51,197 nucleotides of DNA from Chloroflexota bacterium (lineage in GTDB: Bacteria; Chloroflexota; Dehalococcoidia; Lucifugimonadales; HRBIN23). Below are positions 4,345 through 36,364 of the stretch, piece after piece. The stretch is from the NCBI GenBank assembly GCA_016210325.1, contig JACQUK010000134.1, forward strand, positions 1-51,197, in the 5' to 3' direction. Position 1 is the first letter of the stretch. Each line of letters begins with the position of its first letter. The notes beneath the pieces are model-generated. The model saw only the letters and a program-made list of their open reading frames with translations. It ran no database searches and was not told where the DNA came from. The position numbers and the translations under genes were made by a program.

Positions 4345-4390
4345 ACACCTCAGCCTCGCGACAGGTAAGATTGTAGCACGAAGGAGCGGT

Positions 4391-8984: not shown

Positions 8985-9176
8985 CACGGCCTCACTCTCG
9001 CCTCCGCGGGACACCCGCGCAGAGGCTTCCCTCCCACCACCGGTCCTCTTCCGATGGGAATAATACGGACTCGGGCAGCGAGCGCAAGAGGAGCAGAGGA
9101 GCCGAGACCCATGATCATAGGTCCCGTTGCCACGTGTCAACCTCTCGCGGCGTAAGGCCCGTACGGGGCGCTGCTG

Positions 9177-10769: not shown

Positions 10770-10846
10770 GATGAGCCCTCCGTCGTTCTCTCTGAGCATT
10801 GCCGCTAGCTTACTACCTCCCTGTGTCAGCGGCCAGTACCCTGCCC

Positions 10847-10875: not shown

Positions 10876-10949
10876 CCCGCCAATAGCTGTGTGTTCTGCG
10901 GCCCGGTGCCCTGGGAGCGCGAGCATCATTGTTGACGAGGAGACGGGAC

Positions 10950-14956: not shown

Positions 14957-15290
14957 GTCTACCCTCTCAGCGAAAGGCCTCACCTCAGCGGCCAGTATAA
15001 GCCTACTCCACCTACAGCAGGTAGCACCCCCTGTCACATACCGGCGTCGCCTGACCTTCCGTGGAAGGACCAGGTCCTCCCAGACCGGTGTGGTAGCTAA
15101 AGGTGCGAGATGGCGTGTTTCGTCGCCAGCCCATAGCGCTGCCTAGAACAACATGGATAGTAGCGAGTACCGGCGGCGCGAATGCCATTTGTGGACTCCC
15201 GAACTAACGGCAGGCGTTTTAGAAGCTTTGCCATCTCTATTATGACGTGATTCGGCTCATATGTAACTCTCACTGAGCACATTATAGCCA

Positions 15291-15319
15291 TTGACACGGC
15301 AGATGTGCTGTGCTACGTT
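15291..15319 (+). promoter_or_regulatory. Sigma70-type promoter of the ABC/ureohydrolase cluster
   Basis: TTGACA-17 nt-TACGTT with TG extended -10; implies a ~260-nt 5' leader. Confidence 0.65.
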
Positions 15320-15518
15320 CTGTTCATAGCTATCGGTCCAGGGAGGGACGCGGAACTCGCTCGGGCTTGGGCTGGCCGCAGACCAGGGCAGCAGCCAGCC
15401 CAGGTGGTAAGTGCTTCTTTCTTCGGCAGCGCTGTTGCTCCACACGCACGGGGGTAGAGGGTTACAGGGGTTGGAGATTTCCTGTGTTAGTGCACTCGAA
15501 ACTTTCTTGAGTTACCCC

Positions 15519-15570
15519 CAGCGGGGGACGAGGAGGCTTTCCACCTTGCTGTAAGGACAACTCGCAAAGC
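15519..15570 (+). ncRNA. Candidate guanidine-III (ykkC-III)-like riboswitch aptamer, variant
   Basis: CAGCGGGG pairs with CCTTGCTG; GGACGAGG and AGGACAA motifs; GCTTT(C)C pairs with G(C)AAAGC as a pseudoknot; ends just before the GGAGGT RBS. Confidence 0.5.
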
Positions 15571-15584
15571 GATGGAGGTACAGC

Positions 15585-17207
15585 ATGCGCAGCCAGAAGG
15601 CTTGGCTTCTGCTCATGGGGGTGCTCGGCCTCGTCTTTGTGTTCAGCCTGAGTTGTGCTTCCAGAACACCAACGCCAACCGCCCCTGCTGCCCAACCTAC
15701 CGCCACCACCCCGCGTGCCACGCCCACCCCAACCGCTACAGCGGTCCCCACGGCCAGGCCCACCAGGGTGCTGCGCATCGCTCAGGCGGCTGAGCCAGTC
15801 ACGCTCTTTGCTGGAGCGGACACGGACATCGCCAGCATCCTCTTCCACGCCAACGTGTTCGACTGCCTGGTGGACCGTAAGGCGGACCACAGCATGGGGC
15901 CCGGCCTGGCGACGTCTTGGAAGACTGTGGACCCTACAACGTGGGAGTTCACCCTGCGCCCCGGGCTCAAATGGCACGACGGCAGCCCGGTGGATGCCCA
16001 GTCGGTGGCCGACTACTGGAACTTCCTCCGCACCGACGATGCCAAGACACTGCGCGCCGCTATCCGATTCAAGGGTGTCATTAAAGACGCCCAGCCTGTC
16101 GGCACGGGCACGGTCCGCTTCGTCACTGAGCAATCGGAGCCCATCCTGCCCAACCTGCTTTCGGGCTTCAACTGCGGGGTCGGCAACGCCAAGAGCATCA
16201 AGGCACAGGGGCTCCAGAAGGAACTGGAGAAACCCGTCGGCACCGGCGCCTACCGGGTGGTGGAGTGGAAACGCCAGGTCAACGTGGAGCTGGCCCGGAA
16301 CCCCGACTGGTTCGGGGAGCGCGGCGATGGTGACACGGCCATCATCCGGCCCATACCGGACCAGGGCACTCGCGTGGCCGCCCTGCTGGCTGGCGAGGTG
16401 GACATGATCGTAACGGTGGAGCCGGACTCCATCAAGACCATCCAGGGGAATCCCAACGCCCACGTGACCAGCACCCACATGGTGGACTGGATGATCTACT
16501 ACCCGCACCTCAAGGCCACTGCCCCCATCATCTACCAGTCCAAGGAGTTCCGCCAGGCTGTCAGCATGGCCATTGACCGCGAGGCCATCGCCCGGGACAT
16601 CTTTGGCGGCTACGCGGTCCCTATGCGCGGCGTGTTCCCCAACACGAACCCCTCCTACGATGCCTCCCTGGCATGGCCCTATGACCAGAACAAGGCCAAG
16701 GAGCTTCTGGCGAAGTCTGGCTACGCCGGCCAGGAGATTGTCTTCCAGACCGGCGAGAACATCTTCCAGGGCGACCGGCTCACCACCGAGGCCATCGTCA
16801 ACATGGTCCAGAAGATAGGGGTCAACGCCAAGATCGAGCTGCTGGAGGCGGTGGTGCGGGAGCAGATTGTGCGGGAGAAGACCATGAAGGGGTTCATGAT
16901 CCGTCTTCCCGCCGATTTCGCCTATGACGGCTCTGTGTGGTGGGCCAGCATCAAGCCCGGCGCTGCCATTGACTTCTGGCGCAATGAGCGCGCAGACCAA
17001 CTGATGGGCAAAGACTGCGCCGTGATGTTCGACCTGACAGGGCGCAACGCCTGCTACAAGGAAGCCCAGAAGATCATGTTCGACGAGGTGCCTATCCTCC
17101 AGATCGTCCAGGTGGATTTCGTGGACGCGGTCTCCAGCAATTGGGACTGGAAGCGTCGTCCCAACGAGAAGATTGTCCTGGCTGACTTCAAGTACAAGGG
17201 CAGGTAG
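15585..17207 (+). CDS. Dpp/Opp family 5 ABC substrate-binding lipoprotein
   Basis: Lipobox-like LSC, Pro/Thr/Ala linker, PGLATSW...WEFTLRPGLKWHDG, PVGTGAY, RQAVSMAIDR. Confidence 0.95.
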   Translation: MRSQKAWLLLMGVLGLVFVFSLSCASRTPTPTAPAAQPTATTPRATPTPTATAVPTARPTRVLRIAQAAEPVTLFAGADTDIASILFHANVFDCLVDRKADHSMGPGLATSWKTVDPTTWEFTLRPGLKWHDGSPVDAQSVADYWNFLRTDDAKTLRAAIRFKGVIKDAQPVGTGTVRFVTEQSEPILPNLLSGFNCGVGNAKSIKAQGLQKELEKPVGTGAYRVVEWKRQVNVELARNPDWFGERGDGDTAIIRPIPDQGTRVAALLAGEVDMIVTVEPDSIKTIQGNPNAHVTSTHMVDWMIYYPHLKATAPIIYQSKEFRQAVSMAIDREAIARDIFGGYAVPMRGVFPNTNPSYDASLAWPYDQNKAKELLAKSGYAGQEIVFQTGENIFQGDRLTTEAIVNMVQKIGVNAKIELLEAVVREQIVREKTMKGFMIRLPADFAYDGSVWWASIKPGAAIDFWRNERADQLMGKDCAVMFDLTGRNACYKEAQKIMFDEVPILQIVQVDFVDAVSSNWDWKRRPNEKIVLADFKYKGR

Positions 17208-17252
17208 GACCAGGCAGGCGAGTGAGCAGCCTGCCAACGAGGTGAGAAGGGA

Positions 17253-17383
17253 CTAGGTCCTGTTGACACTGTCCGCTCCCCCTTCGATGGCCTTAGGGTG
17301 AGCGGACCCAACCAGGACCCCGCTCATGGATTCGACAAGCTCACCACGAGCGGGATAAGTGGCAGGATGTCAACAGAACCTAG
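17253..17383. mobile_element. MITE-like element with TIRs, carrying two family A REPs
   Basis: CTAGGTCCTGTTGACA / TGTCAACAGAACCTAG (15/16 inverted match). Confidence 0.75.
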
Positions 17384-17434
17384 CGGGACTGGGGAAGCGC
17401 GGCGGGTGCCGCCACCCAGCGCGAGGGTGAGGGT

Positions 17435-18352
17435 ATGGGCCGCTTTCTGGTCAGGCGGTTCCTGCGCGGCATCCTGGTAGTGCTGGGCGTCTCCACCATT
17501 GTGTTCGGCATCACCCACCTGTCCGGTGACCCGGTCTCGCTGCTGGTGGACCAGGAGTGGACCCACGAGCAGGTGGAGCAGGTACGAAGAGACCTGGGCC
17601 TGGACAAGCCTGTGTACATCCAGTACGTGCGCTACTGGCAGAACGTCCTCCTGGGCGATTGGGGCCAGTCCCTGCGGTACCGCCGGCCAGCGCTGTCCCT
17701 GGTCTGGGAACGGTTCCCGGCCACCGTGGAGCTGGCGGCGGTAACCCTCATCATCGTCGTAGCCCTTTCCATACCGGCGGGGGTCATAGCAGCCGTCAAG
17801 CGAGGAGGGTTCTGGGACCAGGCCATCATGACCCTGGCTATGGTGGGCCAGTCGTGGCCGACCTTCTGGCTGGGCCTGGTGCTGATCCTGGTCTTTGCGG
17901 TGAAGTTCCACTGGCTCCCTACCTCTGGCCGCGGCGGCTTTGACCACCTCATTCTGCCTGCGTTCACCCTGGCCTTCCTGCCCATGGCGATGATGGCCCG
18001 CCTCACCCGCTCGGCCATGCTGGACGTTCTGCGGGCAGACTACATTCGCACGGCCCGCGCCAAGGGGTTGAGGAACAGCACGGTCATTGTGCGTCACGCG
18101 CTCCGGAACGCGGCAATCCCGGTGGTCACCATCCTGGGCATTCAGGTGGGGTCCCTGCTGGCGGGCGCCGTAGTGACCGAGACGGTTTTCGCCTGGCCGG
18201 GAGTCGGCCGCGCCGCGGTGGAGGCCGTCCAGCAGCGGGACTACCCGGTGGTCCAGGCTGTGGTGCTGTTGACCTCGGTAGTCTTTGTCACGGTGAACCT
18301 GGCCGTGGACACTCTGTACGGGGTCCTGGACCCGCGTATCCGCTACGCCTAA
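17435..18352 (+). CDS. ABC permease, DppB/OppB-like
   Basis: LGLDKP, DWGQS, DYIRTARAKGL, VTETVFAWPGVG, LDPRIR. Confidence 0.95.
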   Translation: MGRFLVRRFLRGILVVLGVSTIVFGITHLSGDPVSLLVDQEWTHEQVEQVRRDLGLDKPVYIQYVRYWQNVLLGDWGQSLRYRRPALSLVWERFPATVELAAVTLIIVVALSIPAGVIAAVKRGGFWDQAIMTLAMVGQSWPTFWLGLVLILVFAVKFHWLPTSGRGGFDHLILPAFTLAFLPMAMMARLTRSAMLDVLRADYIRTARAKGLRNSTVIVRHALRNAAIPVVTILGIQVGSLLAGAVVTETVFAWPGVGRAAVEAVQQRDYPVVQAVVLLTSVVFVTVNLAVDTLYGVLDPRIRYA

Positions 18353-18361
18353 GGGGATGGG

Positions 18362-19297
18362 ATGGGCACCCCGACGGGAAACAGCATGCAGGTCAGTGCC
18401 TCCCTGGGCCAGATGGTGGACACCGCCAGGCGGCGGGAATGGCTGCGGAGGACGCTCAGACGCCTGAAGCTGCCCATCACCGGCTGGGTCAGCCTCCTCA
18501 TCCTGGTTGTCCTGGTCCTGGCTGCCATTCTAGCGCCGTTCATCTCGCCCTACGACCCCCTGGAGCAGTCCCTGGCCGACCGTTTGAGCCCCCCGTTGAC
18601 CCGCACCGCTGACGGCCTGTTCTTCCCCCTGGGCACAGACCGCCTTGGAAGGGATTTCCTGAGCCGCATGTTCTATGGCGCCCGCATTTCTCTCAGCCTG
18701 GCTTTTGCTGTCGTAGTGGGTGGGACACTGGTGGGCGTAGCAGTTGGCCTGGTTTCCGGGTTCTTCGGAAAGACGGTGGACCAGGCCCTGATGACCATCG
18801 TGGACATCCAGCTCAGCATCCCCAGCATCCTGCTGGCGATTGCCCTGCTGGCGGTGTTGGGGTCCAGCATCCCAACCCTGCTGGTCGTCCTCATCATCAG
18901 CCGGTGGATTGCCCATGCCCGCGCAGTGCGGGGACAGGTCATGTCCCTCAAGGAGAAGGAGTACATCGAGGCGGCCAGGGCCGTTGGGGCCTCCAATGCG
19001 CGGATTGTGCTGCGCCACCTGCTGCCCAACACCATGTCCATTGTGCTGGTGCTGGCGACCCTCCAGTTCGCCGATGTCATTGTGCTGGAGGCCAGCCTGA
19101 GCTTTCTGGGCCTGGGGGTCCAGCCGCCGACCCCTAGCTGGGGCGGTGAGCTGCAACAGGGGCGGGCCTTCATGCAGACCGCCTGGTGGCTTAGCACCTT
19201 CCCCGGCATTGCCCTGATGCTGGTGACGCTGAGCATGAACCGCCTGGGAGACTGGCTTCGTGATGTTCTCGACCCAGCCCTGCGCGGGTCGCTATAG
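18362..19297 (+). CDS. ABC permease, DppC/OppC-like
   Basis: LGTDRLGRD, EYIEAARAVGA, LSFLGLGVQPPTPSWG. Confidence 0.95.
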   Translation: MGTPTGNSMQVSASLGQMVDTARRREWLRRTLRRLKLPITGWVSLLILVVLVLAAILAPFISPYDPLEQSLADRLSPPLTRTADGLFFPLGTDRLGRDFLSRMFYGARISLSLAFAVVVGGTLVGVAVGLVSGFFGKTVDQALMTIVDIQLSIPSILLAIALLAVLGSSIPTLLVVLIISRWIAHARAVRGQVMSLKEKEYIEAARAVGASNARIVLRHLLPNTMSIVLVLATLQFADVIVLEASLSFLGLGVQPPTPSWGGELQQGRAFMQTAWWLSTFPGIALMLVTLSMNRLGDWLRDVLDPALRGSL

Positions 19298-19332
19298 AGA
19301 CAGCTCTTTGACCTGAGCAAAAAGGAGGACGA

Positions 19333-20313
19333 GTGAGTCAGCGCATTGAGAAGCTGTTGCCGCCGCAACTGGTCCAGAGCCGGGGGGAAACCCGCGACTA
19401 CAACATGATGAGCACCTGGATCAGGCCCTGGGACTACCAGGAGGAACTGGACGTCGGCATTATCGGACTGCCCCAGACCCTCTCTCACGGCTTTCAGGGG
19501 ACCTTCATGGGCCCCAACGCGGTCCGGGAGACCTTTGCCACCTTTGGCACGCGCAGTTTCGACTTTGATGTTGACGTGGCGGACCTGAAGGTCCGGGACG
19601 TCGGCGACGTGAAGCTGCACCCCACCAGTGTGGTGGAGACCCATGCCAACTTCGAGAGCGCCCTGGCCGATGTCTATAAGCAGCGCCCCAACTTCATCCC
19701 TATCCTCCTGGGCGGCCACCATGCGGTGGCTGCGCCATCGGTGCGCGGGTTCAAGAAGGGGCACGGTGGATTCAAAGTGGGCCTCATTGACTTCGACGCC
19801 CACAACGACCTGCGGGACCCGACCTACGAGGGACCCAGCGGCGGCACGCCCTTCCGCCAGCTCATTGACCAGGGGTACGTTGATGGCCGCAATGCTGTCC
19901 AGGTGGGGCTGCACGGGTTCCTGAGCTCCTCGGTGCTCAAGGAGTACGCTGACAAGCGCGGCCTGCGCATGGTCTCGGCGCGGGAGGTACGGGCCCGCGG
20001 CATCATCAAAGTCGTGGAGGAGGCGATAGCCCAGGCCTCGGACGGGACGGATGCCATCTACATCTCCTTTGACATGGATGCCATTGAGGCGGCGCTGGCC
20101 CCAGGGACAGTTGCCCACACGCCTGGCGGACTCATGCTGGGCGACGTCTTCGAAGCCCTCCACCTTCTGGGTCAGACGCCCAAGGTGATGGCTATGGACA
20201 TCGTGGAGATGGACCCCCTGCGCGACCTGCGCGGCATGACCCCCAGGGTGGGCTGCATGATGCTGATGTCCTTCCTGGCAGGGCTCCACCAGCGCAAGAA
20301 GCTGTACCGGTAA
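19333..20313 (+). CDS. Ureohydrolase U1, formimidoylglutamase (HutG)-like, metal site intact
   Basis: GGHH, DFDAHND, GPSGGTPFRQL, SFDMD. Confidence 0.9.
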   Translation: MSQRIEKLLPPQLVQSRGETRDYNMMSTWIRPWDYQEELDVGIIGLPQTLSHGFQGTFMGPNAVRETFATFGTRSFDFDVDVADLKVRDVGDVKLHPTSVVETHANFESALADVYKQRPNFIPILLGGHHAVAAPSVRGFKKGHGGFKVGLIDFDAHNDLRDPTYEGPSGGTPFRQLIDQGYVDGRNAVQVGLHGFLSSSVLKEYADKRGLRMVSAREVRARGIIKVVEEAIAQASDGTDAIYISFDMDAIEAALAPGTVAHTPGGLMLGDVFEALHLLGQTPKVMAMDIVEMDPLRDLRGMTPRVGCMMLMSFLAGLHQRKKLYR

Positions 20314-20323
20314 GGAGGGAGCG

Positions 20324-21298
20324 GTGACTACCAAGACCATCGAGTTCCTGGGCCCACCGCAGATCATCCGCCTGAACCAACTGGAGGGGCAGAAGGAGCG
20401 CCGGGTCAGCAACTGGATCACGGCCTGGGACTTCAGCGAGGCCATTGACGTGGGCATCGTGGGGGTCCCGCTGTCCAAGGCGGGGCACCTGCCCGCCGGA
20501 GTTGACTCCACCCCCAACGCCATTCGCAAGGCCTTCATCTACTTCACCACCTACGACCCGGACCTGGGGGTAGACATCCAGTCGCTAAAGGTCCGCTACG
20601 TGGGGGACGTCCGACTCCACGCCACGGACCTCGTGGAGAACAACCGGCGCATTGAGCAGGCCATGAAAGAGGTCTTTGGCCTCACGGGCAGGGTAGTGAC
20701 GGTCATCATGGGCGGCGATGGCTCCATCACCGCGCCGGTGGTCAGGGGGATGGCCGCCGCCACCAAGCAGAAGATCGGCCTGGTGTGGTTCGACTCCCGG
20801 GCCGACAGCCGCGACGTGGCCGAGGGCGGGCAAAGCGACGTGACCCCTCTGCGCAACATCCTGGAGGCCGGCGTCGTGCAGGGGAGCAGCACCGCCGTGG
20901 TGGGTCTCCACGGGTTCGCCAGCTCAATGGAAGAGCACGGGTGGGCGGCGGGCCAGGGCGTCACGCTGATTACCGCACGGCAGGCCCGCAAAGAGGGCAT
21001 CGCCAACGTCACTCAACGGGCACTGGAAGTGGCCTCCAAGGGCACCGACGCGGTGTACGTCAGCGTGGATGGCACCGTGCTGGACATGTCCTCCAGCGCC
21101 TCTCACCTGGCAACGGTGCCGGGGGGGCTGTCCTGGCTGGAGGTGCAGGAAGCACTGTTCCTGCTGGGACAGGGCACCAGGGTCAAGGCCCTGGACATCA
21201 CCGCAATAGACACCTATGACGACATCAAGGAGGTTGTTGCCAGGACCAGCGCCGGACTGCTGCTGGCCTTCCTGGCGGGAGTCAAGCTTCGCAAATAG
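20324..21298 (+). CDS. Ureohydrolase-fold U2, HutG-like, degenerate metal site
   Basis: GVPLSK N-terminal motif; GGDG, FDSRAD and SVDGT replace GGDH, DAHxD and DxD. Confidence 0.85.
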   Translation: MTTKTIEFLGPPQIIRLNQLEGQKERRVSNWITAWDFSEAIDVGIVGVPLSKAGHLPAGVDSTPNAIRKAFIYFTTYDPDLGVDIQSLKVRYVGDVRLHATDLVENNRRIEQAMKEVFGLTGRVVTVIMGGDGSITAPVVRGMAAATKQKIGLVWFDSRADSRDVAEGGQSDVTPLRNILEAGVVQGSSTAVVGLHGFASSMEEHGWAAGQGVTLITARQARKEGIANVTQRALEVASKGTDAVYVSVDGTVLDMSSSASHLATVPGGLSWLEVQEALFLLGQGTRVKALDITAIDTYDDIKEVVARTSAGLLLAFLAGVKLRK

Positions 21299-21331
21299 GG
21301 TGGCCACGGAAGCCACGATGAGGAGGATACT

Positions 21332-22255
21332 ATGGCAGCGCCGGCAGGGGAGCGAGTTGTTTACCTGAATGGCAAGTTTGTCCCCGAGAGCCAGGCGACG
21401 GTCTCGATCTCTGACCACGGGTTCACCCACGGCGACGCCGCCTTCGACACCATGCGGACCTTCAAAGGCAAGGTTTTCAAGCTCAAGGAGCATGTGGAGC
21501 GACTATACCGCTCGTGCAAGTACGCCGGCATAGACCCCGGTATCTCCCAGGGGGAGATGTCACGTCTGACGGACGAGGTGGTGGAGCGCAACAAGCACCT
21601 GCTGGGCCCCAGCGACGACTTCTGGGTGACCCAGCGAGTCACGCGCGGGGTCCCCTCGGCGCGGCCCGGCGAGAAGGAGCAGCCCACCATCATCATCCTG
21701 TGCCGGCCACTGCCGTGGGAGCGGGCCAAGTTCTACCAGACGGGTATCAGCATGAGGACTTCGCCCATCCGCCGAACACCCCCACAGTACCTGGACCCCC
21801 GGGCCAAGCTCCAGAACTACCTGAACCAGGTGATGGCCGAGATGCTGGCCAAGCAGGGAGACCCGGACGTCTGGAGCCTGCTGCTGGATGAGAACGGCAA
21901 TGTGGCCGAAGGCTCCGGCTACAACTTCTTCATCGTGCGGGATGGGAGGGTCATCACCTCCCACGAGCGCTACGTCCTGGGGGGCATCAGCCGCCAGACA
22001 ACGATGGAGATCTGCCAGGAACTGAACATCCCGGCCGCAGAGATGGACTTCAACCTCTACGATGTGTATACCGCTGACGAGGCGTTCATCACCGCCACCA
22101 GCGTCTGCCTGCTGCCGGTGCGCTCCGTTGACACCCGGACCATTGGGGATGGGGCCATCCCCGGCTCCATCACAGGGCGTATTCTCGGCACGTGGAGCGG
22201 GATGGTGGGCGTGGACATCGCGGGACAGTACCTGGCCCACATCAAGAGCGCCTGA
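21332..22255 (+). CDS. Fold-type IV PLP aminotransferase (IlvE/Dat-like)
   Basis: DHGFTHGDAAFDT, HVERL, RAKLQNY PLP lysine, EGSGYNFF, LGGISR, ADEAFIT. Confidence 0.9.
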   Translation: MAAPAGERVVYLNGKFVPESQATVSISDHGFTHGDAAFDTMRTFKGKVFKLKEHVERLYRSCKYAGIDPGISQGEMSRLTDEVVERNKHLLGPSDDFWVTQRVTRGVPSARPGEKEQPTIIILCRPLPWERAKFYQTGISMRTSPIRRTPPQYLDPRAKLQNYLNQVMAEMLAKQGDPDVWSLLLDENGNVAEGSGYNFFIVRDGRVITSHERYVLGGISRQTTMEICQELNIPAAEMDFNLYDVYTADEAFITATSVCLLPVRSVDTRTIGDGAIPGSITGRILGTWSGMVGVDIAGQYLAHIKSA

Positions 22256-22277
22256 GGAAGGGCGTCCGGAGGTGCCT

Positions 22278-23258
22278 GTGTACACGCGGGAGCTATTGCC
22301 GTCCTTCGCAGGGGTATCGAGCTTTCTGCGGGCACCGTGGGGCACGGCCCGCCAGGTCCGGCCCGGGGCCGTGGCGGTGCTCGGTGCTCCCCATGACGCC
22401 ACCTCCAGCGCACGTCAGGGTGCCCGCTACGGCCCCAAAGCTATCAGAGAGGCCTCCGCCGATTTCGTCTACGACCTCCAGGCCTCGGAGACCCATACCT
22501 TGGTGGACATCGAGACGGGAAAGCAGCTCCGGCTCCCGACTGGTGGCAAGGTAGTAGACCTTGGTGATGCGCCCCTTTACCCCCTCAGCCTGGCCCGCAG
22601 CATGGCATCGCTGCGGAACATCGCGGCCCAAGTGGTCCACCGCGGCGCCTTCCTGGTGGCCCTTGGCGGCGACGCCTTCATCACCTACCCGCTGCTCCAG
22701 GGTGTGGCCCGTGCCCTGGGGCAGGGCGCCGCGCTGGGGTACATCCAGGTGTCCAGCCAGTTTAACCTGGCCGACGCCGACGCGGCCTGGGGCAAGAACT
22801 GGCACGGCGCCACGGCCCGCCGGCTCCTGGAACTGGACCTGGTGAAGCCCCAGAACATGGCCTTCCTCGGCGTCTCCGGCTACGCCCTGGCAGAGGAGTG
22901 GGAGCTGGCCCAAGCTAAAGGGATGAAGGTGGTCACCGTGGAGGCGGTGGGCAAGCTGGGGGCCACACGGGCGGCAGAGGAGGCAGTGGCGGCAGCCGGC
23001 GCCGGGTGCGGGGCCATCTACCTGAGCGTGGACATCGGGGCGGTAGATACCGGCTACGCCCCTGGCCGAGGCGAGGTGGTCATCGGTGGCATGACGCCCC
23101 GAGAGCTGTTGGAGACCATGCGTGCTCTTTCCAAAGTCACCACTCTCCGGGCCATGGACATGGTGGAGGTGGCGCCCACGGTGGACCCCAGCGGCCGTGC
23201 TCAGCGGCTGGCGGCGGAAGCGGTCATCGAGCTCATCAGCCCCAGAGCGCTGGCCTGA
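22278..23258 (+). CDS. Ureohydrolase-fold U3, agmatinase-like, degenerate metal site
   Basis: GAPHD...GARYGP; GGDA, QVSSQFN, SVDIG. Confidence 0.85.
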   Translation: MYTRELLPSFAGVSSFLRAPWGTARQVRPGAVAVLGAPHDATSSARQGARYGPKAIREASADFVYDLQASETHTLVDIETGKQLRLPTGGKVVDLGDAPLYPLSLARSMASLRNIAAQVVHRGAFLVALGGDAFITYPLLQGVARALGQGAALGYIQVSSQFNLADADAAWGKNWHGATARRLLELDLVKPQNMAFLGVSGYALAEEWELAQAKGMKVVTVEAVGKLGATRAAEEAVAAAGAGCGAIYLSVDIGAVDTGYAPGRGEVVIGGMTPRELLETMRALSKVTTLRAMDMVEVAPTVDPSGRAQRLAAEAVIELISPRALA

Positions 23259-23282
23259 GGCTGAGGCGTGGGAGGCTGAAGC

Positions 23283-24299
23283 ATGCCTCTGAACAAGGAC
23301 CCCCTGCCCATGTTCGCCGGCATCCTCACCTTCTTGCGGGTGCCCCACGGGGACCTCGAGGACCTGCAAGAGGGGATGATAGCCATCGCAGGGGTCACCT
23401 ACGACCTCTCCAACACCGCCCGCATCGGCTCCCGCTTCGGCCCGCGAAACATGCGGGAGACCTCCACCTTCTATGCGGGCAGCATCGAGACCGGCAGCGA
23501 GGTCATCGAGGTCACCACCAAGGAGGTGGTGCGCTACAATCCGAAGCCCCGGATGCTGGACCTGGGCGACCTCAACGTGTACCCCGTGGACTGGCCCAAG
23601 ACCGAGGCATCCCTCCGGCGGGCCATGCGCGAGATCACGCGACGGGGCGCCTTCCCCGTCATCCTGGGGGGCGATAACTTCATCACCACCGCCCTGATTC
23701 AAGGCTACAAGGATGCGGTGGTAGCAAAAGGTGGCCGGAGGGTGGGGTACATCCAGCTTTCCCGCAATCTTGACTTGGGGAAAGAGGACCCTGTGTGGGG
23801 CAACGTGTGGCGGGGCGCCACTGCTCGCCAAATTATCGAGATGGGTGCTGTGGACCCCCGCAACATGGTCTGGGTCGGGCCTCACGGCTACGTGCGGGCC
23901 GAGGAGTGGGTCTACGCGCAGGAGCTGAACGCACGGGTGTTTACCCTGAAGGACATCCGCAAACAGGGCATCCTGCCGGTGATGCGCCAGGCTGTAGACA
24001 TCGCGGGTGCAGGCTGCGATGGCATCTACGTGAGCGTTGACCTGGACGTAGTGGACGGCTGCTACACCGCCGGCACCGCGGTCCCGAACCTGGACGGGGT
24101 CCGCGATGTGGAGCTGGTGGACGCCATGGACGTGCTGTGGGATGCCAAGGTTGGCGCAGTGGGGGTGGTGGGGGTGAACCCAACGGTGGAGTTCGTGTAC
24201 CACACCAGTCAGCGCATCGCGGTCACCGCCATTCTGCGGCTCATTGCCCCGCGGATTGCTGCGGTCTCGCCCACGCCTTCCGTTCCAGCCCGAACCTAG
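23283..24299 (+). CDS. Ureohydrolase-fold U4, agmatinase-like, degenerate metal site
   Basis: GSRFGP; GGDN, QLSRNLD, WRGAT; SVDLD retained. Confidence 0.85.
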   Translation: MPLNKDPLPMFAGILTFLRVPHGDLEDLQEGMIAIAGVTYDLSNTARIGSRFGPRNMRETSTFYAGSIETGSEVIEVTTKEVVRYNPKPRMLDLGDLNVYPVDWPKTEASLRRAMREITRRGAFPVILGGDNFITTALIQGYKDAVVAKGGRRVGYIQLSRNLDLGKEDPVWGNVWRGATARQIIEMGAVDPRNMVWVGPHGYVRAEEWVYAQELNARVFTLKDIRKQGILPVMRQAVDIAGAGCDGIYVSVDLDVVDGCYTAGTAVPNLDGVRDVELVDAMDVLWDAKVGAVGVVGVNPTVEFVYHTSQRIAVTAILRLIAPRIAAVSPTPSVPART

Positions 24300-24324
24300 A
24301 ACAGCCGAGAAAGGGGGCTGACCC

Positions 24325-25314
24325 ATGGTGGCAGGAAGACCGGGACCCTGGTATGAAGGCGCGGCCACCTTCCTGCACGCGCCGATGGTGGACTTTGATA
24401 CACTGAAACCGGGCATGGTGGCGGTGAGCGGCGCTCCCCACGACAGCACCCACTCCACTCGCTTTGGCACGCGGACGGGCCCCAAGGGGGTCCGAGAGGC
24501 CTCTTTGCCCTTGGCCGACAAGCTGCGCAACGCCGGCAAGAAAGGCCTGGTGGACGTGGCCACCGGGGCGCGGCTGGTCATGAAGGATGGTGTGCTGGCC
24601 GACGTGGGCGACGCCAATGTGTACCCCACCGACGTGATGAAGACCACTGAGGGCATCGCCGGCCTGGTCTACGAGGTGGTGAAGCGGGGCGCCTTCTCGG
24701 TATGCCTGGGTGGCGATCACTACGTCGGCTACCCCTCATGCCTTGGCGCTACCCGGGCCATTGTGGAGAAGGACCCCCGGGTGAAAGTGGGCTACATCCA
24801 CGTGGACGGGCACCTGGACTTCACCGACGGCAACCCCATCTTTGGACGGTACAACCACGGCACCAACGCCCGGCGCATCTCCGAGTTGCCCATGGTGTCG
24901 CCCAGTAACATGGCCTGGGTGGGCATCCAGGGGTGGGTCAGCACCGAGCAGTGGGACCTCATCCACAAGAATGGCGCCAAGATCTTCACCCACAAGGACC
25001 TGTGGGAGCTGGGCGCACGAGAGGTGGCCCGCCGCGCCGCCGACCACGCCATCCAGGGTTGCGACTACATCTACGTATCCCTGGACATTGACTGCATTGA
25101 CACCGGCTTCGCGCCCGGCACCGGTGGCGTGGTCATCGGCAGCGTAACCCCGCTGATGTACCTCCAGATCATCGAAGAGCTGGCCAAGTACCCTATCCTG
25201 GCCTTTGACCTGACGGAGGTCACCCCCCGTCTGGACTACACCGAGCGGACGCCGCGGATGGCGGCCGAGGCGGTCCTGCGCTTCATTGGGCGCAAGGTGT
25301 TCGAGATTCACTAG
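24325..25314 (+). CDS. Ureohydrolase U5, agmatinase/guanidinobutyrase-like, all catalytic motifs intact
   Basis: GGDH, HVDGHLD, YNHGT, SLDID, DLTEV. Confidence 0.9.
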   Translation: MVAGRPGPWYEGAATFLHAPMVDFDTLKPGMVAVSGAPHDSTHSTRFGTRTGPKGVREASLPLADKLRNAGKKGLVDVATGARLVMKDGVLADVGDANVYPTDVMKTTEGIAGLVYEVVKRGAFSVCLGGDHYVGYPSCLGATRAIVEKDPRVKVGYIHVDGHLDFTDGNPIFGRYNHGTNARRISELPMVSPSNMAWVGIQGWVSTEQWDLIHKNGAKIFTHKDLWELGAREVARRAADHAIQGCDYIYVSLDIDCIDTGFAPGTGGVVIGSVTPLMYLQIIEELAKYPILAFDLTEVTPRLDYTERTPRMAAEAVLRFIGRKVFEIH

Positions 25315-25331
25315 GGAAGAGGAGGCCCCCG

Positions 25332-26633
25332 ATGGTGAAGAGCGTCGTGCGCGGGCAGGCCAGCAAGGAGCTCTGGGAGATGGCCAGGGAGTTCATCCCG
25401 GGGGCGACCCTGCACCTGCGGGGCCTGCCGGATGAGGTAGCCACGGTCTTTGTCCGCGGCAAGGGGAGCCGCATCTGGGACGTGGACGGCAATGAGTACA
25501 TTGACTATCTGATCGGGGCAGGTCCCCTCATCCTGGGGCATGCCCACCCTGCTGTGGTCCAGGCGGTGAAGGAACGCCTGGAGATGGGCTCCCAGTTCTA
25601 CCAGCTTACCGATGTGGCCATACGACTGGTGAAGAAGATAGTGGAGGCGGTCCCCTGCGCCGAGGCCCTGAAGTTCACCAACTCGGGCAACGAGGCCACC
25701 TATGTGGCCCTGCGGCTGGCGCGAGGCTACACCGGCAAGCCCAAGATCCTGAAGTTCGAGGGCGGCTATCACGGCAGCCACGACTACGCGGCCTGGAGCA
25801 CTACACCATCGGGGCCACCCAACTACCCGAAGGGCGAGCCAGACTCCGACGGGGTGCCCAGCGTGTTGGGCGACCGCGTTCTGGTGGCGCCCTTCAACAA
25901 TACTGACTACGTCTGCTCTCTCATCCGCCAGCACAAGGACGAGTTGGCGGCGGTCATCGTGGAGCCCTTCTTCCGCATCATCAAGCCCAAGCCGGGCTTT
26001 CTGGAGGCCCTGCGACAGAACACCAAGGAGTGCGGTGTGCTGCTGGTCTTCGACGAGGTGGTTACCGGCTTCCGTATCGCCTGGGGGGGTGCCCAGGAGC
26101 TTTATGGCGTCGTCCCTGACTTGGCGACCCTGGGCAAAGCCATCGGCGGCGGGTTCCCCGTGGGTGCCGTGGTGGGCCCCAAGGAGATCATGGGCCGACT
26201 GGACCCGGCACTGAAACCCCAGGGACGGTACGTAATGACCAGCGGCACCTTCAGCGGCAACCCCATCACTGCCACGGCCGGCCTGACCACCCTCAACGAG
26301 CTGGAGAAGCCAGGTACGTACGATGCGCTACGGCGCTCCGGCGAGCGACTCAAGAAAGGCTTCAAGCAGGTCTGCGACCTCCTGGAGACGCCCGCGCAGG
26401 TGCTGGGAGAGGGGCCGATTGTGGACATCCTGTTCACTGACGAGGAGATCGTAGACTACCGCTCCACCATGAGGGCCGACCAGGAGAAGGGGCGCAGGGT
26501 GAGCATCGAGATGATTAAGCGGGGAGTCTTCCGTCCGCCTGGCGGGAAGTTCTACATCTCCAAGGCCCACACGGATGCCGACCTGGACGAGACGGTCAAC
26601 ATCTTCGAGGCTGCCCTGCGCGCGGCGTACTAA
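25332..26633 (+). CDS. Class III PLP aminotransferase (GSA-aminomutase-like subfamily)
   Basis: WDVDGNEYIDY, NSGNEA, FEGGYHG, FDEVVTGFR, LGKAIGGG. Confidence 0.9.
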   Translation: MVKSVVRGQASKELWEMAREFIPGATLHLRGLPDEVATVFVRGKGSRIWDVDGNEYIDYLIGAGPLILGHAHPAVVQAVKERLEMGSQFYQLTDVAIRLVKKIVEAVPCAEALKFTNSGNEATYVALRLARGYTGKPKILKFEGGYHGSHDYAAWSTTPSGPPNYPKGEPDSDGVPSVLGDRVLVAPFNNTDYVCSLIRQHKDELAAVIVEPFFRIIKPKPGFLEALRQNTKECGVLLVFDEVVTGFRIAWGGAQELYGVVPDLATLGKAIGGGFPVGAVVGPKEIMGRLDPALKPQGRYVMTSGTFSGNPITATAGLTTLNELEKPGTYDALRRSGERLKKGFKQVCDLLETPAQVLGEGPIVDILFTDEEIVDYRSTMRADQEKGRRVSIEMIKRGVFRPPGGKFYISKAHTDADLDETVNIFEAALRAAY

Positions 26634-26710
26634 GGCTCTATATCCATCGGCTGCACACACTTCGCATGGCACCTCTCTATGCTGGTGAAAAGGGAAAGAG
26701 GCGCTGAGCC

Positions 26711-28411
26711 ATGAGCGGAAAAACCACCAGTTGGGGCGTGCGGAAGAGCCGGATAACCGCCGAGCACGGGATGGTGCTCTCGGAGCACGCGGCGGTAACC
26801 AGGGCGGGCCTGGAGGTGCTCATGGCCGGGGGCAACGCCGTGGACGCTGCGGTGGCCATGGGGTTTGCCATTGGCGTGTGCGGGCCTTTCATGAGCGGTC
26901 TGGGCGGCGGTGGCCACATGGTCATCTACAACGCCCGCAACAAGAAAAGCGCCGTGGTGGACTACAACATGCGGGCACCCAAGGCAGCCACGCCCGCCAT
27001 GTATGAGCTGCTCCCAGGCCCCCCAGAGGGCAACTTTGGCTGGCGCCCGGTGAAGGACCAGGCAAATGCGGTGGGCTACCGTTCCATCACGGTCCCCGGC
27101 ACCATCGCCGGGCTGTGCCTGGCCCTGGAGAGGTTCGGCACCATGGGCCGCCAGGACGTCATGCGCCACGCCATTCGGTACGCCGAGGAAGGGTTCGACG
27201 CAGACATCTTCCTGGCCCTGTCCATCGCCTCGCGCTGGGGCATCATTACCCAGTTCCCGGAGACGATGGGGCTGTTCCGGAACGCTGACGGGTCACTGCT
27301 GACCTCACCGCTTTCACAGAAGGCCGCGGGGAAGATGGTGCAGAAAGACCTGGCCCGCACACTCAGGAGGATAGCGCAAGAGGGACCGGATGCCTTCTAT
27401 CGTGGCGAAGTCGCCAGGGCCATCGTGCGGCACGTGCTCGGGCATGGCGGGCTGCTGGGCGAGGAGGACCTGGCCTCCTACCAGGCGGACGTGTGGTCTC
27501 CAGGAGGGATAGCTTCCTACCGTGGCTACACTGTCGTGGCCCCGCCCATCGCAAGCGGTGGGCCGACGCTGGTGGAAGCCCTGCACATCCTGGACAACTT
27601 CGACATGGCTTCTTTGCCCCATAACTCTGCCGAAGCTCTGCATCTTATTGCCGAGGCCCTGCGGCTGGCTTTTGCCGACCGCTACCACCTGATGGGGGAC
27701 CCGGACCTCATCCCTACGCCCTACGAAAAGCTAGCTTCACCGGGCTACGCCAAGGAGTTGGCCCGGTCTGTCCGTCCCGATAGGGATCTGCCGCTGCCCC
27801 CGGTCAGAGAGCTCCAGAACACCCTTGTTGAGGCCGCGCTGGCCGGCCAGCACGGTGCAGACACCACACAGAGCTGTGTGGTGGACAAAGAGCGCAACAT
27901 GGTCTCTATAACCCAGACCTTGCAGACCTGGAGCGGAGTCATCCCCCCGGGGACTGGGGTACCCCTGAACGGCGCCATGAGCTGGTTCAATCCAGAGCCG
28001 GGGACGCCCAACTCAGTCCAGGGTGGCAAACGCATCCTCTCCAACATGTCCCCGGTCCTGGTGCTGAAGGACAGCAGGCCGGTCATGGCGCTGGGCGCCC
28101 CCGGAGGCCGAAAGATCGTCAGTGCGGTGCTCCAAGTGCTGGTGAACATCCTGGACTACGGCATGGAGCTTAACCAGGCCATCGCCGCCCCGCGGCTGGA
28201 TGCCAGCGCCCTGGACCTGCTGGCCGACGACCGATTGCCGCAGCGGAGCATCCAAGGTCTTCAGGCCCGGGGACACCGCGTGGCGACGGTCCGCGAGGAG
28301 TTGCTGGCACGGTACTTTGCGGGGCCGGCTGGAATACAGGTGGACGGGGGCACCGGGAAGCTGCGCAGCGGGCTATGCGAGTTCGACCTGGCCTCAGCCG
28401 CGGGGTACTAG
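26711..28411 (+). CDS. Divergent gamma-glutamyltransferase-like Ntn hydrolase
   Basis: GGNAVDAAVA, SGLGGGG, TVPGT, D|TTQ nucleophile site, GAPGG. Confidence 0.9.
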   Translation: MSGKTTSWGVRKSRITAEHGMVLSEHAAVTRAGLEVLMAGGNAVDAAVAMGFAIGVCGPFMSGLGGGGHMVIYNARNKKSAVVDYNMRAPKAATPAMYELLPGPPEGNFGWRPVKDQANAVGYRSITVPGTIAGLCLALERFGTMGRQDVMRHAIRYAEEGFDADIFLALSIASRWGIITQFPETMGLFRNADGSLLTSPLSQKAAGKMVQKDLARTLRRIAQEGPDAFYRGEVARAIVRHVLGHGGLLGEEDLASYQADVWSPGGIASYRGYTVVAPPIASGGPTLVEALHILDNFDMASLPHNSAEALHLIAEALRLAFADRYHLMGDPDLIPTPYEKLASPGYAKELARSVRPDRDLPLPPVRELQNTLVEAALAGQHGADTTQSCVVDKERNMVSITQTLQTWSGVIPPGTGVPLNGAMSWFNPEPGTPNSVQGGKRILSNMSPVLVLKDSRPVMALGAPGGRKIVSAVLQVLVNILDYGMELNQAIAAPRLDASALDLLADDRLPQRSIQGLQARGHRVATVREELLARYFAGPAGIQVDGGTGKLRSGLCEFDLASAAGY

Positions 28412-28503
28412 ACTGAATACCGTAGGGCAGGGCGCCGGGAGCGTCCAAAGCCCCGTGCTGCGTGTCCTCGGCCCGCAATCTCAGGCTGGGAGGAGGCATG
28501 TCT

Positions 28504-29487
28504 ATGGTGAAACACCTGCTGCCACCCGGACTCATCCTGGCGTCGAGCCCTCTGGGGGCCAACCCGGACTACAACATGCTGAACAGCGTCATCCTGCCCT
28601 GGGACTTCAAGGAAGACATCCATGCCGGTATCATCGGCGTCCCGTTCAACAAAGGGACCCACATGTTCAAGGGGACCAATGAGGGACCCAACGCGGTGCG
28701 GGAGACCTTCCTCTCCTTCGCCACCCGCAGCTTCGATTTTGGCGTGGACATCATGAACCTGAAAGTGCGGGACATCGGTGACGTGCAGATGCACCCCACC
28801 GATGTGGTGCGGTGCCACGCCAACACTCAGGAGGCGCTGACAGAGCTTTACCAGCGTCATCCGGGGTTTGTGCCTATCATCATCGGTGGCGACCACGCTA
28901 TCGCAGCCCCCTCGTGCCGCGCCCTCCGTGACGGTCGCAGGTTCAGGCGGGTGGGCCTGGTTGACTTCGACGCACACAACGACCTGCGGGACCCAGCCTA
29001 CGACGGCCCCAGCAGCGGCACACCGTTCCGTCAGCTCATTGATGGGGGGTACGTGAACGGGCGCAACGCGGTCCAGGTGGGCTTGCACGGCTTTCTCTCC
29101 TCCTCGGTGCTCAAAGACTATGCCGACAAGCACGGCCTCCGCATGGTCTCGGCCAGGGAGGTGCGCCAGCGGGGCATCGAGGATGTGGTGGAAGAGGCCC
29201 TGGCCCAGGCCGGCGATGGGACAGACGCCATCTATGCCTCCTTCGACATTGATGCCATTGAGGCGGCCTTCGCGCCAGGCACCGGCTCCCACACCCCCGG
29301 CGGGCTGCTGCTGGGCGATGTTTTCGAGGCCATGTACATGCTGGGCCGCGACCCCAGGGTGGCGGCCATGGACCTGGTGGAGTTGGACCCCATCAAGGAC
29401 CTCAAAAAGATGACCTCCCGTGTAGGGTGCATGATGATCCTGACCTTCCTGGTGGGGCTCCAAGAGCGCCTTCAGCTCTACGCCTAG
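28504..29487 (+). CDS. Ureohydrolase U6, HutG-like paralog of U1, metal site intact
   Basis: GGDH, DFDAHND, GPSSGTPFRQL, SFDID; AGGAGG RBS 7 nt before ATG 28504. Confidence 0.9.
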   Translation: MVKHLLPPGLILASSPLGANPDYNMLNSVILPWDFKEDIHAGIIGVPFNKGTHMFKGTNEGPNAVRETFLSFATRSFDFGVDIMNLKVRDIGDVQMHPTDVVRCHANTQEALTELYQRHPGFVPIIIGGDHAIAAPSCRALRDGRRFRRVGLVDFDAHNDLRDPAYDGPSSGTPFRQLIDGGYVNGRNAVQVGLHGFLSSSVLKDYADKHGLRMVSAREVRQRGIEDVVEEALAQAGDGTDAIYASFDIDAIEAAFAPGTGSHTPGGLLLGDVFEAMYMLGRDPRVAAMDLVELDPIKDLKKMTSRVGCMMILTFLVGLQERLQLYA

Positions 29488-29527
29488 TGGATATGTAGTG
29501 CCCGCAACCGCTAGCGAGGAGAGGCCC

Positions 29528-30517
29528 ATGCCCCTGAACCGGGACCCGCTGCCCGCCTTCGCCGGGATCCTTACCATGCTACGGGCACCCAAGGCTGAGG
29601 TGGAGGACCTGAAGGAAGGCATGGTGGCCATCCTGGGCGTCCCCTACGACCTTTCTACCACGGGCCGCATCGGCGCCCGGTTCGGCCCCCGCAGCATGCG
29701 TGAGACGGCCACCTACTATGCCAGCCATATTGAAAGGGGGGACCTCATCGAGGTCACTACGGGCCAAGTCCTGGTGGCCCCCAAGGAACTGCGGCTCGTG
29801 GACCTGGGCGACCTGAACGTCTACCCCGTTGACTGGCCCAAGACGGAGGCAGCCCTCCGGGAGGCCATCGCCCGAATCCTCGAACGCGGGGCCTTCCCCG
29901 TTGTCCTTGGTGGCGACCACTTCATCTCCTATCCTCTGACCCTGGGCCTCCACGACGCCATCCTCCGCCGTGGCGGCAGGAGAATCGGCTATATCCAGGT
30001 CTCCAACCGGCTGGACCTGGGGCAGGAGGACCCCCTCTGGGGCAGGGTGTGGACGGGAGCTACCGCTAGGAGGGTCCTGGAGTCAGGCGCCGTGGACCCC
30101 CGCAACATGGTCTGGCTGGGTGCCCACGGGTACGTCCCCCTGGAGCAACTGGAGACGGCCAGAGAGTTGGATCTCCGGGTCTTCACCCTGGGCGACATGC
30201 GACGTGGAGGTATCCGAGCAGTGGCCCGCCAGGCTGTGGAAGTGGCTTCACAGGGCTGCGACGCCGTCTACCTGAGCCTGGACATGGGTGTGGTCAATGG
30301 GAGCTACGCCGCTGGTACTGCTGCTCCCAGCTTCGACGGGCTGCGGGATGTCGAGCTGCTTGAGGTCATGGACGAGCTGGCGCAATCCCCCATCGGCGCC
30401 TTGGACATCGTGGGGGTGAACCCCACCGTCGAGTTCGTGTACCACACCACACAGCGGCTGGCGGTCACCGCCCTCATCCGCTTCATTGCCCCCAGGGTCC
30501 TGGGCGGCACGGTCTGA
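29528..30517 (+). CDS. Ureohydrolase-fold U7, paralog of U4, degenerate metal site
   Basis: GGDH kept, but QVSNRLD, WTGAT and SLDMG; shares LNVYPVDWPKTEA and VGVNPTVEFVYHT with U4. Confidence 0.85.
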   Translation: MPLNRDPLPAFAGILTMLRAPKAEVEDLKEGMVAILGVPYDLSTTGRIGARFGPRSMRETATYYASHIERGDLIEVTTGQVLVAPKELRLVDLGDLNVYPVDWPKTEAALREAIARILERGAFPVVLGGDHFISYPLTLGLHDAILRRGGRRIGYIQVSNRLDLGQEDPLWGRVWTGATARRVLESGAVDPRNMVWLGAHGYVPLEQLETARELDLRVFTLGDMRRGGIRAVARQAVEVASQGCDAVYLSLDMGVVNGSYAAGTAAPSFDGLRDVELLEVMDELAQSPIGALDIVGVNPTVEFVYHTTQRLAVTALIRFIAPRVLGGTV

Positions 30518-36160: not shown

Positions 36161-36364
36161 CCGGTCATCCCCTCCTCCCACTCTGCCTCCAGTGTAGCAG
36201 TCCAGATGGAGGGAAGGGAGCAAGCCCCAGGGGCTGTGGAGGTGAACAAGGCGCTTCAGGCTGTGGTAAAGTAGGGGACGCCCAAGGCAGCCAGGGCCTG
36301 GGTACTGGGGCGGCATGGGATTGCCTTGGGGAGGGACGACACTCAACCGTGGAGGTGCACAGGA

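Follow-up and report, generated by a model that had tools for sequence, protein, structure and literature searches.

The window analyzed here is a 51,197-nucleotide stretch of chromosomal, high-G+C DNA from a Chloroflexota bacterium of the class Dehalococcoidia (assembly GCA_016210325.1, contig JACQUK010000134.1, positions 1 to 51,197 of the forward strand). It carries one plus-strand operon of 13 tightly packed genes (15585 to 30517), seven of which encode paralogous ureohydrolases of the arginase family, U1 to U7 (Table 1). Four of the seven, U2, U3, U4, and U7, have lost three or five of their six metal ligands, and all seven reading frames are open from start to stop. Each matches the ureohydrolase family PF00491 over its full length (E values of 1.5e-68 to 2.6e-45; 155.5 to 231.7 bits against a cut-off of 22; profile positions ~2 to 277 of 280). 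Since seven of the nine PF00491 matches in the 2.29-Mb host assembly (157 contigs, 82% complete) are packed into 11.2 kb, their clustering is not due to chance. The gaps between operon genes measure 9 to 77 nucleotides (nt), except for 227 nt after the first gene; U2 starts 10 nt past the U1 stop codon, and U7 starts 10 nt past U6. An earlier reading of the locus made from the letters alone (the sequence-only reading) had placed the ureohydrolases at 19333 to 25314; this interval does contain U1 to U5, but U6 and U7 lie downstream of it (28462 to 30517), and 21332 to 22255 within it encodes an aminotransferase.

The most likely start of U3 is the GTG at 22278, which lies 5 nt after a GGAGG at 22268 to 22272, rather than the upstream ATG at 22062. 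Contigs of one sequencing run, X1, span every junction from U1 to U7; this run may be the source sample and was used as a check of contiguity only. Two groundwater metagenome runs contain 0.96 and 0.88 of the window's sampled words.

Table 1. Genes of the operon at 15585 to 30517 of the window, with the roles proposed for the ureohydrolase paralogs
Gene product	Coordinates	Strand	Supporting match or motifs
Solute-binding protein family 5 (Opp/Dpp/Nik type), operon gene 1	15585..17207	+	PF00496, E 2e-69
ATP-binding cassette (ABC) permease 1	17435..18352	+	PF00528 and PF19300
ABC permease 2	18362..19297	+	PF00528 and PF12911
U1, HutG-like, proposed catalytic subunit of module H	19333..20313	+	PF00491, E 1.6e-64; GGHH/DAHND/DMD, 6/6 ligands
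U2, HutG-like degenerate paralog, proposed noncatalytic partner of U1	20324..21298	+	GGDG/DSRAD/DGT, 3/6 ligands
Class IV aminotransferase (branched-chain or D-amino-acid type)	21332..22255	+	PF01063, E 1.3e-45; PRK08320, 236 bits, below cut-off
U3, agmatinase/GdmH-like degenerate paralog, proposed pseudo-subunit beta1 of module G	22278..23258	+	GGDA/SSQFN/DIG, 1/6 ligands
U4, degenerate paralog, proposed pseudo-subunit beta2 of module G	23283..24299	+	GGDN/SRNLD/DLD, 3/6 ligands
U5, agmatinase/GdmH-like, proposed catalytic alpha subunit of module G	24325..25314	+	PF00491, E 4.3e-58; GGDH/DGHLD/DID, 6/6 ligands
Class III (omega) aminotransferase	25332..26633	+	PF00202, E 7.4e-60; PRK00062, 387 bits, just under cut-off of 398
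Gamma-glutamyltransferase	26711..28411	+	PF01019, E 2.1e-128; TIGR00066, 391.6 bits, above cut-off of 357.85
U6, intact HutG-like ureohydrolase	28462..29487	+	GGDH/DAHND/DID, 6/6 ligands; 65% identical to U1
U7, degenerate paralog of U4 type, last operon gene	29498..30517	+	GGDH/SNRLD/DMG, 3/6 ligands

The extent of the loss was read from an alignment of the seven paralogs at the His, Asp, His, Asp, Asp, and Asp positions of the GGDH, DxHxD, and DxD motifs, which we take to be H101, D124, H126, D128, D232, and D234 in rat arginase numbering. All six ligands were present only in U1, U5, and U6. In the same order, U2 reads G-D-R-D-D-T, U3 reads A-S-Q-N-D-G, U4 reads N-S-N-D-D-D, and U7 reads H-S-R-D-D-G, such that U2, U4, and U7 have each lost three ligands and U3 has lost five. 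A seventh position, presumably the substrate-binding Glu277 of arginase, is Glu in 16/16 canonical relatives; it is Gly in U4 and U7 and Ala in U2, and U3 retains the Glu. The alignment reproduced all seven motif strings quoted in the sequence-only reading, which had also correctly described the frames as uninterrupted and U4 and U7 as sharing long identical blocks: these two proteins are 62 to 63% identical, with a longest identical block of 17 residues. The remaining identities were 39% for U1/U2, 39% for U3/U5, and 33% for U4/U5.

Ligand loss at these positions is thus a solid observation, and its functional meaning is a separate matter. The solved formimidoylglutamase 3m1r_A reads GGDN when aligned with U2; since it does so, an Asn at the first His, as in U4, is not proof of inactivity on its own, and calls of inactivity that rest on motifs alone would need care.

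Database searches indicated that the altered sites extend well beyond the window. Among matches of the U4/U7 type, 68/82 were noncanonical, with Ser replacing the first Asp in 66/67, Gln, Arg, or Asn replacing the second His in 57/67, and Gly at the Glu position in 63/68 degenerate matches; the U7 signature, HSRDDG, recurs in database protein P0005. For the U2 type, 53/55 matches carried Gly at the first His, and the 53 had Thr or Ser at the last Asp in 48 cases and Gly (35), Asp (15), or Ala (1) at the Glu position. The U3 type was more heterogeneous: 58/69 matches were noncanonical, and the number of ligands kept was four in 24 clusters, three in 9, two in 2, and one in 23. The one-ligand signature of U3 itself (ASQNDG or ASKNDG) was found in eight clusters, namely the window's own and seven others at 63 to 72% identity to U3. 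The altered signatures are kept down to ~45% identity and across two phyla, and each degenerate type forms a family whose altered site is stable.

The types differ in what became of the site. At five of its six former ligand positions, the U3 type varies as much as it does at an average column (percentiles 36 to 69), and this variability, together with the stepwise loss of ligands, fits a subunit that would no longer need metal. The conservation pattern of the U2-type and U4-type sites suggests that they have been remodelled rather than abandoned; these sites may hold a single metal, or an Arg/Lys side chain may lie among the remaining Asp residues.

Purifying selection, not decay, is what the orthologues of the degenerate paralogs show. 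Between orthologues in two nine-gene arrays described below (loci L013 and L016), the ratio of nonsynonymous to synonymous divergence (dN/dS) was 0.028 to 0.092 in the four degenerate genes and 0.006 to 0.065 in the five intact genes, at a synonymous divergence (dS) of 0.15 to 0.38. Within a family of related genomes, f63, the median dN/dS values were 0.19 for the U3 type, 0.085 and 0.144 for two U4-type genes, and 0.077 and 0.078 for two U5-type genes, based on 12 genomes in which 28/66 pairs had usable dS; these pairs are kin rather than independent comparisons. The sequence-only reading had argued for selection rather than decay, and the orthologue comparisons bear this out. A mean column identity of 74% in one alignment was discounted as a sign of unusual conservation of the U3 type, because 12/17 of its rows came from one family; the dN/dS of the U3 type was the highest of the five f63 genes.

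These values also bear on the possibility that the degenerate copies are neutrally decaying pseudogenes that are still open by chance. High-G+C DNA does yield long chance open reading frames (ORFs), and the ligands have been lost, as would be expected of such relics, but dN/dS values of 0.03 to 0.19 at unsaturated dS refute this explanation, and none of the arrays read contains a truncated copy, the signatures persisting over the range of identity and the two phyla noted above. We therefore give the pseudogene explanation virtually no weight.

Gene order provides the next line of evidence. Besides the window, the loci read were L013 and L014 from a genome of the same order (G014), the array of a second Dehalococcoidia metagenome-assembled genome (MAG; L016), a Rokubacteria MAG (L017), and members of families f63 and f12. 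When species-representative genomes were scanned, close relatives of U4 occurred at just three loci, two of them in Dehalococcoidia MAGs and the third in a Rokubacteria MAG, whereas the other 76 loci fetched with relatives held one canonical gene each. In a sample of the class, U3-type and U4-type matches fell in the same 13/401 genomes, namely the window's genome and 12/12 members of f63, and no U2-type match was found in the 400 other genomes at an E value of 1e-60 or better. In a sample of the order, U2-type genes were present in 11/401 genomes, comprising the window's genome and 10/11 members of f12. A scan of metagenome contigs for further U2-type contexts returned seven loci, all of them single canonical HutG-like genes.

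Wherever these types occur, their order is fixed. A U3-type gene is followed by a U4-type gene and then a U5-type gene, all on one strand, in 16/16 fully read arrays (the window, G014, L016, L017, and 12 from f63); 15 of the 16 have a second U4-type/U5-type pair after the triad, and a further U5-type gene is present in G014 and L016. The U5-type orthologues keep 6/6 ligands in all arrays. An intact U1-type gene lies immediately upstream of the U2-type gene in 21/21 cases (the window and 20 genes in 10 f12 genomes). Among the loci read, no degenerate type was found without its matching intact neighbour.

We refer to the HutG-like U1-U2 pair as module H and to the U3-U4-U5 triad as module G. In f12 the two modules stand side by side in a nine-gene array, and nine tandem arginase-family genes occupy L013 9891-19392 and L016 4495-14326, in the order extra intact type (with a DSHTD motif), U1-, U2-, U3-, U4-, U5-, U4-, U5-, and U5-type; G014 has a separate U1-type/U2-type pair ~12 kb from its array (L014). 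The modules are nevertheless separable, because U3-U4-U5 occurs without a U2-type gene in 12/12 f63 genomes and at the Rokubacteria locus. A single ring of up to five subunit types, which the sequence-only reading had entertained, is not supported in view of this separation; its other proposal, that U1 goes with U2 and U3 with U4 and U5, survives as a description of gene modules of conserved order, whose products would be putative heteromers. The U6-U7 pair combines an intact HutG-like gene with a U4-type degenerate gene, is present in no other array read, and is probably best regarded as a lineage-specific extra pair.

We built a quick maximum-likelihood tree from relatives of the window's genes alone (70 rows, none dropped, P0137 on a long branch), and it resolved each type. 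The U3-type (support 99) and U4-type (100) clades were sisters with a support of 88, and together with the U5 type (99) and canonical relatives they formed a 45-row clade (99) in which the U5 type grouped with canonical single-gene relatives. The U2 type (99) lay beside the U1 type (97) within a HutG-like clade (98). The tree and the NCBIfam matches thus agree with the earlier statement that the HutG-like and agmatinase-like branches each contain inactive paralogs, and the phylogeny proposed in the sequence-only reading is provided here for the window's own relatives. Dehalococcoidia and Rokubacteria orthologues clustered by position in the array and not by host, which indicates that the array has moved as a block. 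The branches of window U3 and U5 diverge before their counterparts split, whereas U4 and U7 were unresolved at the base of their clade; this placement fits the window's triad being a simpler form that would have preceded duplication of the U4-U5 pair. Given dS values of 0.88 for U1/U6 (dN/dS of 0.31, both intact) and ~1.05 for U4/U7, the two pairs may have duplicated at about the same time.

The closest functional precedent is metformin hydrolase, MefH (also named MfmAB or MetCaCb), together with the dimethylguanidine hydrolase DmgH. MefH/DmgH is reported to be an alpha2beta4 enzyme built as a dimer of alpha-beta-beta trimers, in which only the alpha subunit holds the ligands and two Ni ions, neither subunit is active alone, and MefH alpha is insoluble or inactive by itself (PMC11399263). 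MetCb is described as a "protein binder" that carries no metal and covers the pocket of MetCa with its N-terminal loop, the two being 34% identical (PMC11271267). The window shares with these systems the adjacency of an intact and a metal-site-degenerate paralog, the degenerate one being kept by selection; partner identity is 33 to 34% there and 33 to 39% here, and the degenerate partner has lost 3 to 5 of 6 ligands there (PMC11271267) and 3, 3, 3, and 5 here.

The differences are equally clear. The window genes are not orthologues of MefH/DmgH and fall outside the MetCa and MetCb clades, their degenerate types branching with their own intact neighbours. Module G has two distinct degenerate types per catalytic subunit, and degenerate paralogs originated once more among the HutG-like genes. 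The arrays come from Chloroflexota and Rokubacteria hosts; the list of MetCaCb-like pairs in Li et al. names four phyla, Chloroflexota not among them (PMC11271267), and both hosts lie outside those four. Sinn et al. do note briefly that another tandem arrangement evolved independently in putative Limnocylindrales (PMC11399263); the four Limnocylindria/Limnocylindrales loci fetched in our scan (L029, L031, L068, and L088) held one canonical gene each. A tblastn search with U5 against a plasmid collection (441 records) returned no Aminobacter or Pseudomonas metformin plasmid among the 60 matches listed.

Sequence scores are consistent with this separation. U2, U3, and U4 scored 56 to 71 bits against MefH beta (8ryi_C), 98 to 146 bits against GdmH-type or HutG structures, and 188 to 220 bits against their own neighbours, and MefH subunits were only the 5th to 11th best solved relatives (56 to 71 bits). 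Based on these scores against Protein Data Bank sequences and on the tree of the window's relatives, the degenerate lineages arose separately from MefH beta and separately in the agmatinase/GdmH-like and HutG-like branches.

The best solved relative of U5, U3, and U4 is "agmatinase 2" (7esr, 9fek), with which they share the fold and the N-terminal region (against 7esr_A/9fek_A, E values of 6e-35 [124 bits] for U5, 4e-35 for U3, and 4e-27 for U4); we take 7esr and 7oi1 to be GdmH of Synechocystis. Its cyanobacterial and other single-gene relatives, however, form a separate clade (support 100; loci L024, L034, L040, L041, L046, L071, and L084 of the U4-family scan) outside the 45-row clade of U3, U4, U5, and U7; they are single canonical genes (76/76 loci), and the same substrate is not implied. 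For U2, the best solved relative is HutG of Bacillus subtilis (3m1r; E value of 1.4e-41), and TIGR01227 is the best NCBIfam match of U1, U2, and U6; all three fall short of that HutG equivalog, at 192.3 (U1), 192.1 (U6), and 123.2 (U2) bits against a cut-off of 229.15, the operon showed no further hut genes, and U2 lacks three ligands. Scores against the SpeB models TIGR01230 and PRK02190 (cut-offs of 174.3 and 302) were also too low: 113.8 and 140.8 for U5, 125.3 and 142.1 for U3, 62.5 and 90.1 for U4, and 84.2 and 114 for U7. No equivalog model in NCBIfam was matched above its cut-off by any of U1 to U7.

Since the gene arrangement, the divergence, and the kind of ligand loss match those of MefH/DmgH, we read U1-U2 as a candidate alpha-beta enzyme. 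In the model that we propose, module H would consist of intact U1 (alpha) and degenerate U2 (beta), both HutG-like, and module G of degenerate U3 and U4 with intact, GdmH/agmatinase-like U5. By analogy with metformin/dimethylguanidine hydrolase, the intact subunit would hold the dinuclear metal site and do the chemistry, and the degenerate subunits would occupy the remaining places of an arginase-type trimer or hexamer, where they would lend stability to the catalytic subunit and contribute to the shape of its pocket; in module G, the two nonequivalent beta places of the trimer would each be taken by a specialised paralog, U3 and U4. The physical association, stoichiometry, active subunit, metal, and substrate in this model are inferred. 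On our best reading, the locus would encode two heteromeric ureohydrolases that evolved independently, one an alpha-beta pair of HutG-like subunits and the other a triad in which two distinct pseudo-subunits join one catalytic subunit, and we regard the model as plausible.

Multimer prediction, which the sequence-only reading had proposed, was run on the triad and went some way in this direction. A three-chain fold of U5, U4, and U3 (U3 as the partner, each chain with its own alignment) scored 0.38 (0.38, 0.35, and 0.42 in individual runs) against 0.03 for the best control; contacts agreed by at least 93% between runs, the partner had a predicted local distance difference test (pLDDT) value of at least 89, and the pLDDT values of all three chains were 86 to 90. 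The mark used to call such folds was reached by 58/80 solved complexes and 2/110 mismatched pairs, and at scores of 0.60 or below it was reached by 7/80 solved complexes and by both mismatched pairs. The fold thus weakly supports a mixed U3-U4-U5 assembly.

A good deal weighs on the other side of the heteromer reading. The fold result may stem from likeness to solved arginase-fold oligomers, and conserved adjacency would also be expected of enzymes of the same pathway that never touch. The evidence for selection comes mostly from relatives, because the window's own U4/U7 comparison (dN/dS of 0.28) is near saturation. The U6-U7 pair, with one member from each branch, fits neither module. Although MefH, DmgH, and MetCaCb have a Ni-chaperone context, the window's operon is without one: a Pfam scan found no HypA/HypB-type chaperone gene in the operon (HypB was not specifically searched for), and HypA (PF01155) and urease alpha (PF00449) were not found in the 82%-complete assembly. 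Finally, the leftover ligands are strikingly constant, with D128 and D232 of the U4 type at or below the 10th percentile of column variability and H101 at the 24th, and with D124, D128, and D232 of the U2 type invariant in 53/53 sequences; on these alignments, both types may retain a site for one metal and have some activity themselves. The term "pseudoenzyme" used in the sequence-only reading consequently suits the U3 type, which resembles a metal-free subunit, better than the U2 and U4 types, which keep a conserved remnant of a remodelled site.

This last observation is what an explanation by seven independent homo-oligomeric hydrolases would build upon, at least the U2 and U4 types being active through a remodelled one-metal or metal-free site. 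Few columns of these families are as conserved as the leftover ligands, and the replacements are conserved too (in the U4 type, Ser at D124 in 66/67 and Gln or Arg at H126; in the U2 type, Gly at H101 in 52/53 and Arg or Lys at H126 in 49/53); 3m1r_A illustrates that not every departure inactivates, and tandem isozyme arrays are common. Against this stand the loss of the bridging Asp, the second-site His, and the conserved Glu together in the U4 type, the loss in the U2 type of two His/Asp ligands of different metal sites and of the Glu, and the fall of the U3 type to a single ligand in 23 clusters. Independent isozymes, moreover, would not need an intact neighbour of matching type, yet no degenerate gene was found without one. 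On balance we consider such a set of isozymes unlikely.

That MetCb purified alone forms stable homohexamers (PMC11271267) is a further difficulty, because it means that degenerate paralogs can exist as homomers. The degenerate genes might accordingly encode stand-alone noncatalytic proteins, with roles in ligand or metal binding, buffering, or regulation outside mixed oligomers; selection in the absence of catalytic residues fits any noncatalytic function, and the modest fold score does little to discourage this view. However, as far as the two reports go, the sole characterised degenerate members of the superfamily are obligate partners in mixed hexamers (PMC11399263, PMC11271267), co-assembly is the simplest explanation for the strict one-to-one pairing, in order, with intact paralogs of the same branch, and U4-type and U5-type genes were duplicated jointly, as a pair, in the five-gene arrays. 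A stand-alone role is, in our estimation, improbable, and somewhat more so than a set of isozymes.

Returning to the heteromer reading, the rest of the operon suggests a context for it. Its transporter, together with two aminotransferases and a gamma-glutamyltransferase, would fit the uptake and breakdown of nitrogen-rich amidino/guanidino compounds or peptides. We consider it probable, though well short of certain, that the operon is a catabolic or nitrogen-scavenging cluster for imported amidino/guanidino compounds and that its ureohydrolases act as paralog heteromers in modules H and G. A bolder version, which we put forward only tentatively, is that U3-U4-U5 is an obligate complex of three subunit types, the end state of a MefH-like trimer; that U1-U2 is the first HutG-like heteromer; that inactive partners were recruited independently at least three times (counting the MefH beta, U2-type, and U3/U4-type lineages); and that the five- and nine-gene arrays arose by beta-alpha duplication around a shared U3-type gene.

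The operon contains no ATPase gene for the ABC transporter after permease 2, U1 coming next at 19333; at the Rokubacteria locus, a family 5 solute-binding protein, two permeases, and a fused double ATPase follow the array (L017 14145-19871). A class IV aminotransferase gene also follows the U1-type/U2-type pair in G014 (L014 7186-8112), where class IV and class III aminotransferase genes both adjoin a U1-type/U2-type pair. In the window, every Rfam family stayed below its gathering score, and the sole match in the leader (14900 to 15700) was at chance level (E value of 0.6), so that no riboswitch hints at the substrate. The G014 array is adjoined by a minus-strand cobalamin riboswitch (L013 6536-6718; 96 bits) before a FecCD-type ABC transporter and cobalamin salvage genes. 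A DUF1989 gene also abuts the G014 array (L013 9270-9881). Carboxyguanidine deiminase CgdAB, a DUF1989 pair, is another enzyme with an inactive cognate (PMC11271267), and it resembles the present modules in pairing an enzyme with an inactive paralog in guanidine metabolism; it differs in its unrelated fold, and the operon of the window showed no DUF1989 gene.

Elsewhere in the window, a convergent MutS2-like ORF beyond U7 ends at 30719. Upstream of the operon lie another gamma-glutamyltransferase gene at 9177-10799 (minus strand; PF01019, E value of 1e-154) and genes for a pyridoxal phosphate-dependent PALP-family enzyme (10929-12308, plus strand) and a DUF763 protein (12587-13687, minus strand). 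The G+C content drops to 0.56 at 4001 to 6000, compared with 0.61 to 0.72 elsewhere in the window, and Pfam matches are lacking for three long ORFs on the minus strand (4684-6048, 6438-7466, and 7566-9140); this part of the window may be foreign or lineage-specific DNA. Three genes of the metallo-beta-lactamase fold occupy 4 kb (36326-37201, plus strand; 38766-39425 and 39725-40441, minus strand), with a thioredoxin-like gene between them. A 1,003-residue protein with N6 DNA methylase and Eco57I/MmeI-type methylase domains (42213-45224, minus strand) probably represents a restriction-modification enzyme of type IIG or IIL.

Full-text literature searches turned up neither these arrays nor a HutG-like heteromer nor a ureohydrolase built from three types of subunit, in agreement with the sequence-only reading, which knew of no characterised example of the latter two. 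All three would be new, whereas the principle of an active paralog with an inactive one is known from MefH/DmgH. Source names label these genes "agmatinase" or "formiminoglutamase"; if the heteromers are real, the catalytic repertoire of these genomes is overstated, and a gene of either module expressed alone would probably give an insoluble or inactive product, as was the case for MefH alpha and MetCa. A catalytic subunit served by two different pseudo-subunits would then take the principle a step beyond MefH and be a clean natural case of the entrenchment of paralogs in a homo-oligomer. The inactive-partner solution would also be recurrent among ureohydrolases, would predate adaptation to a drug, and would extend to uncultured members of the Chloroflexota and Rokubacteria.

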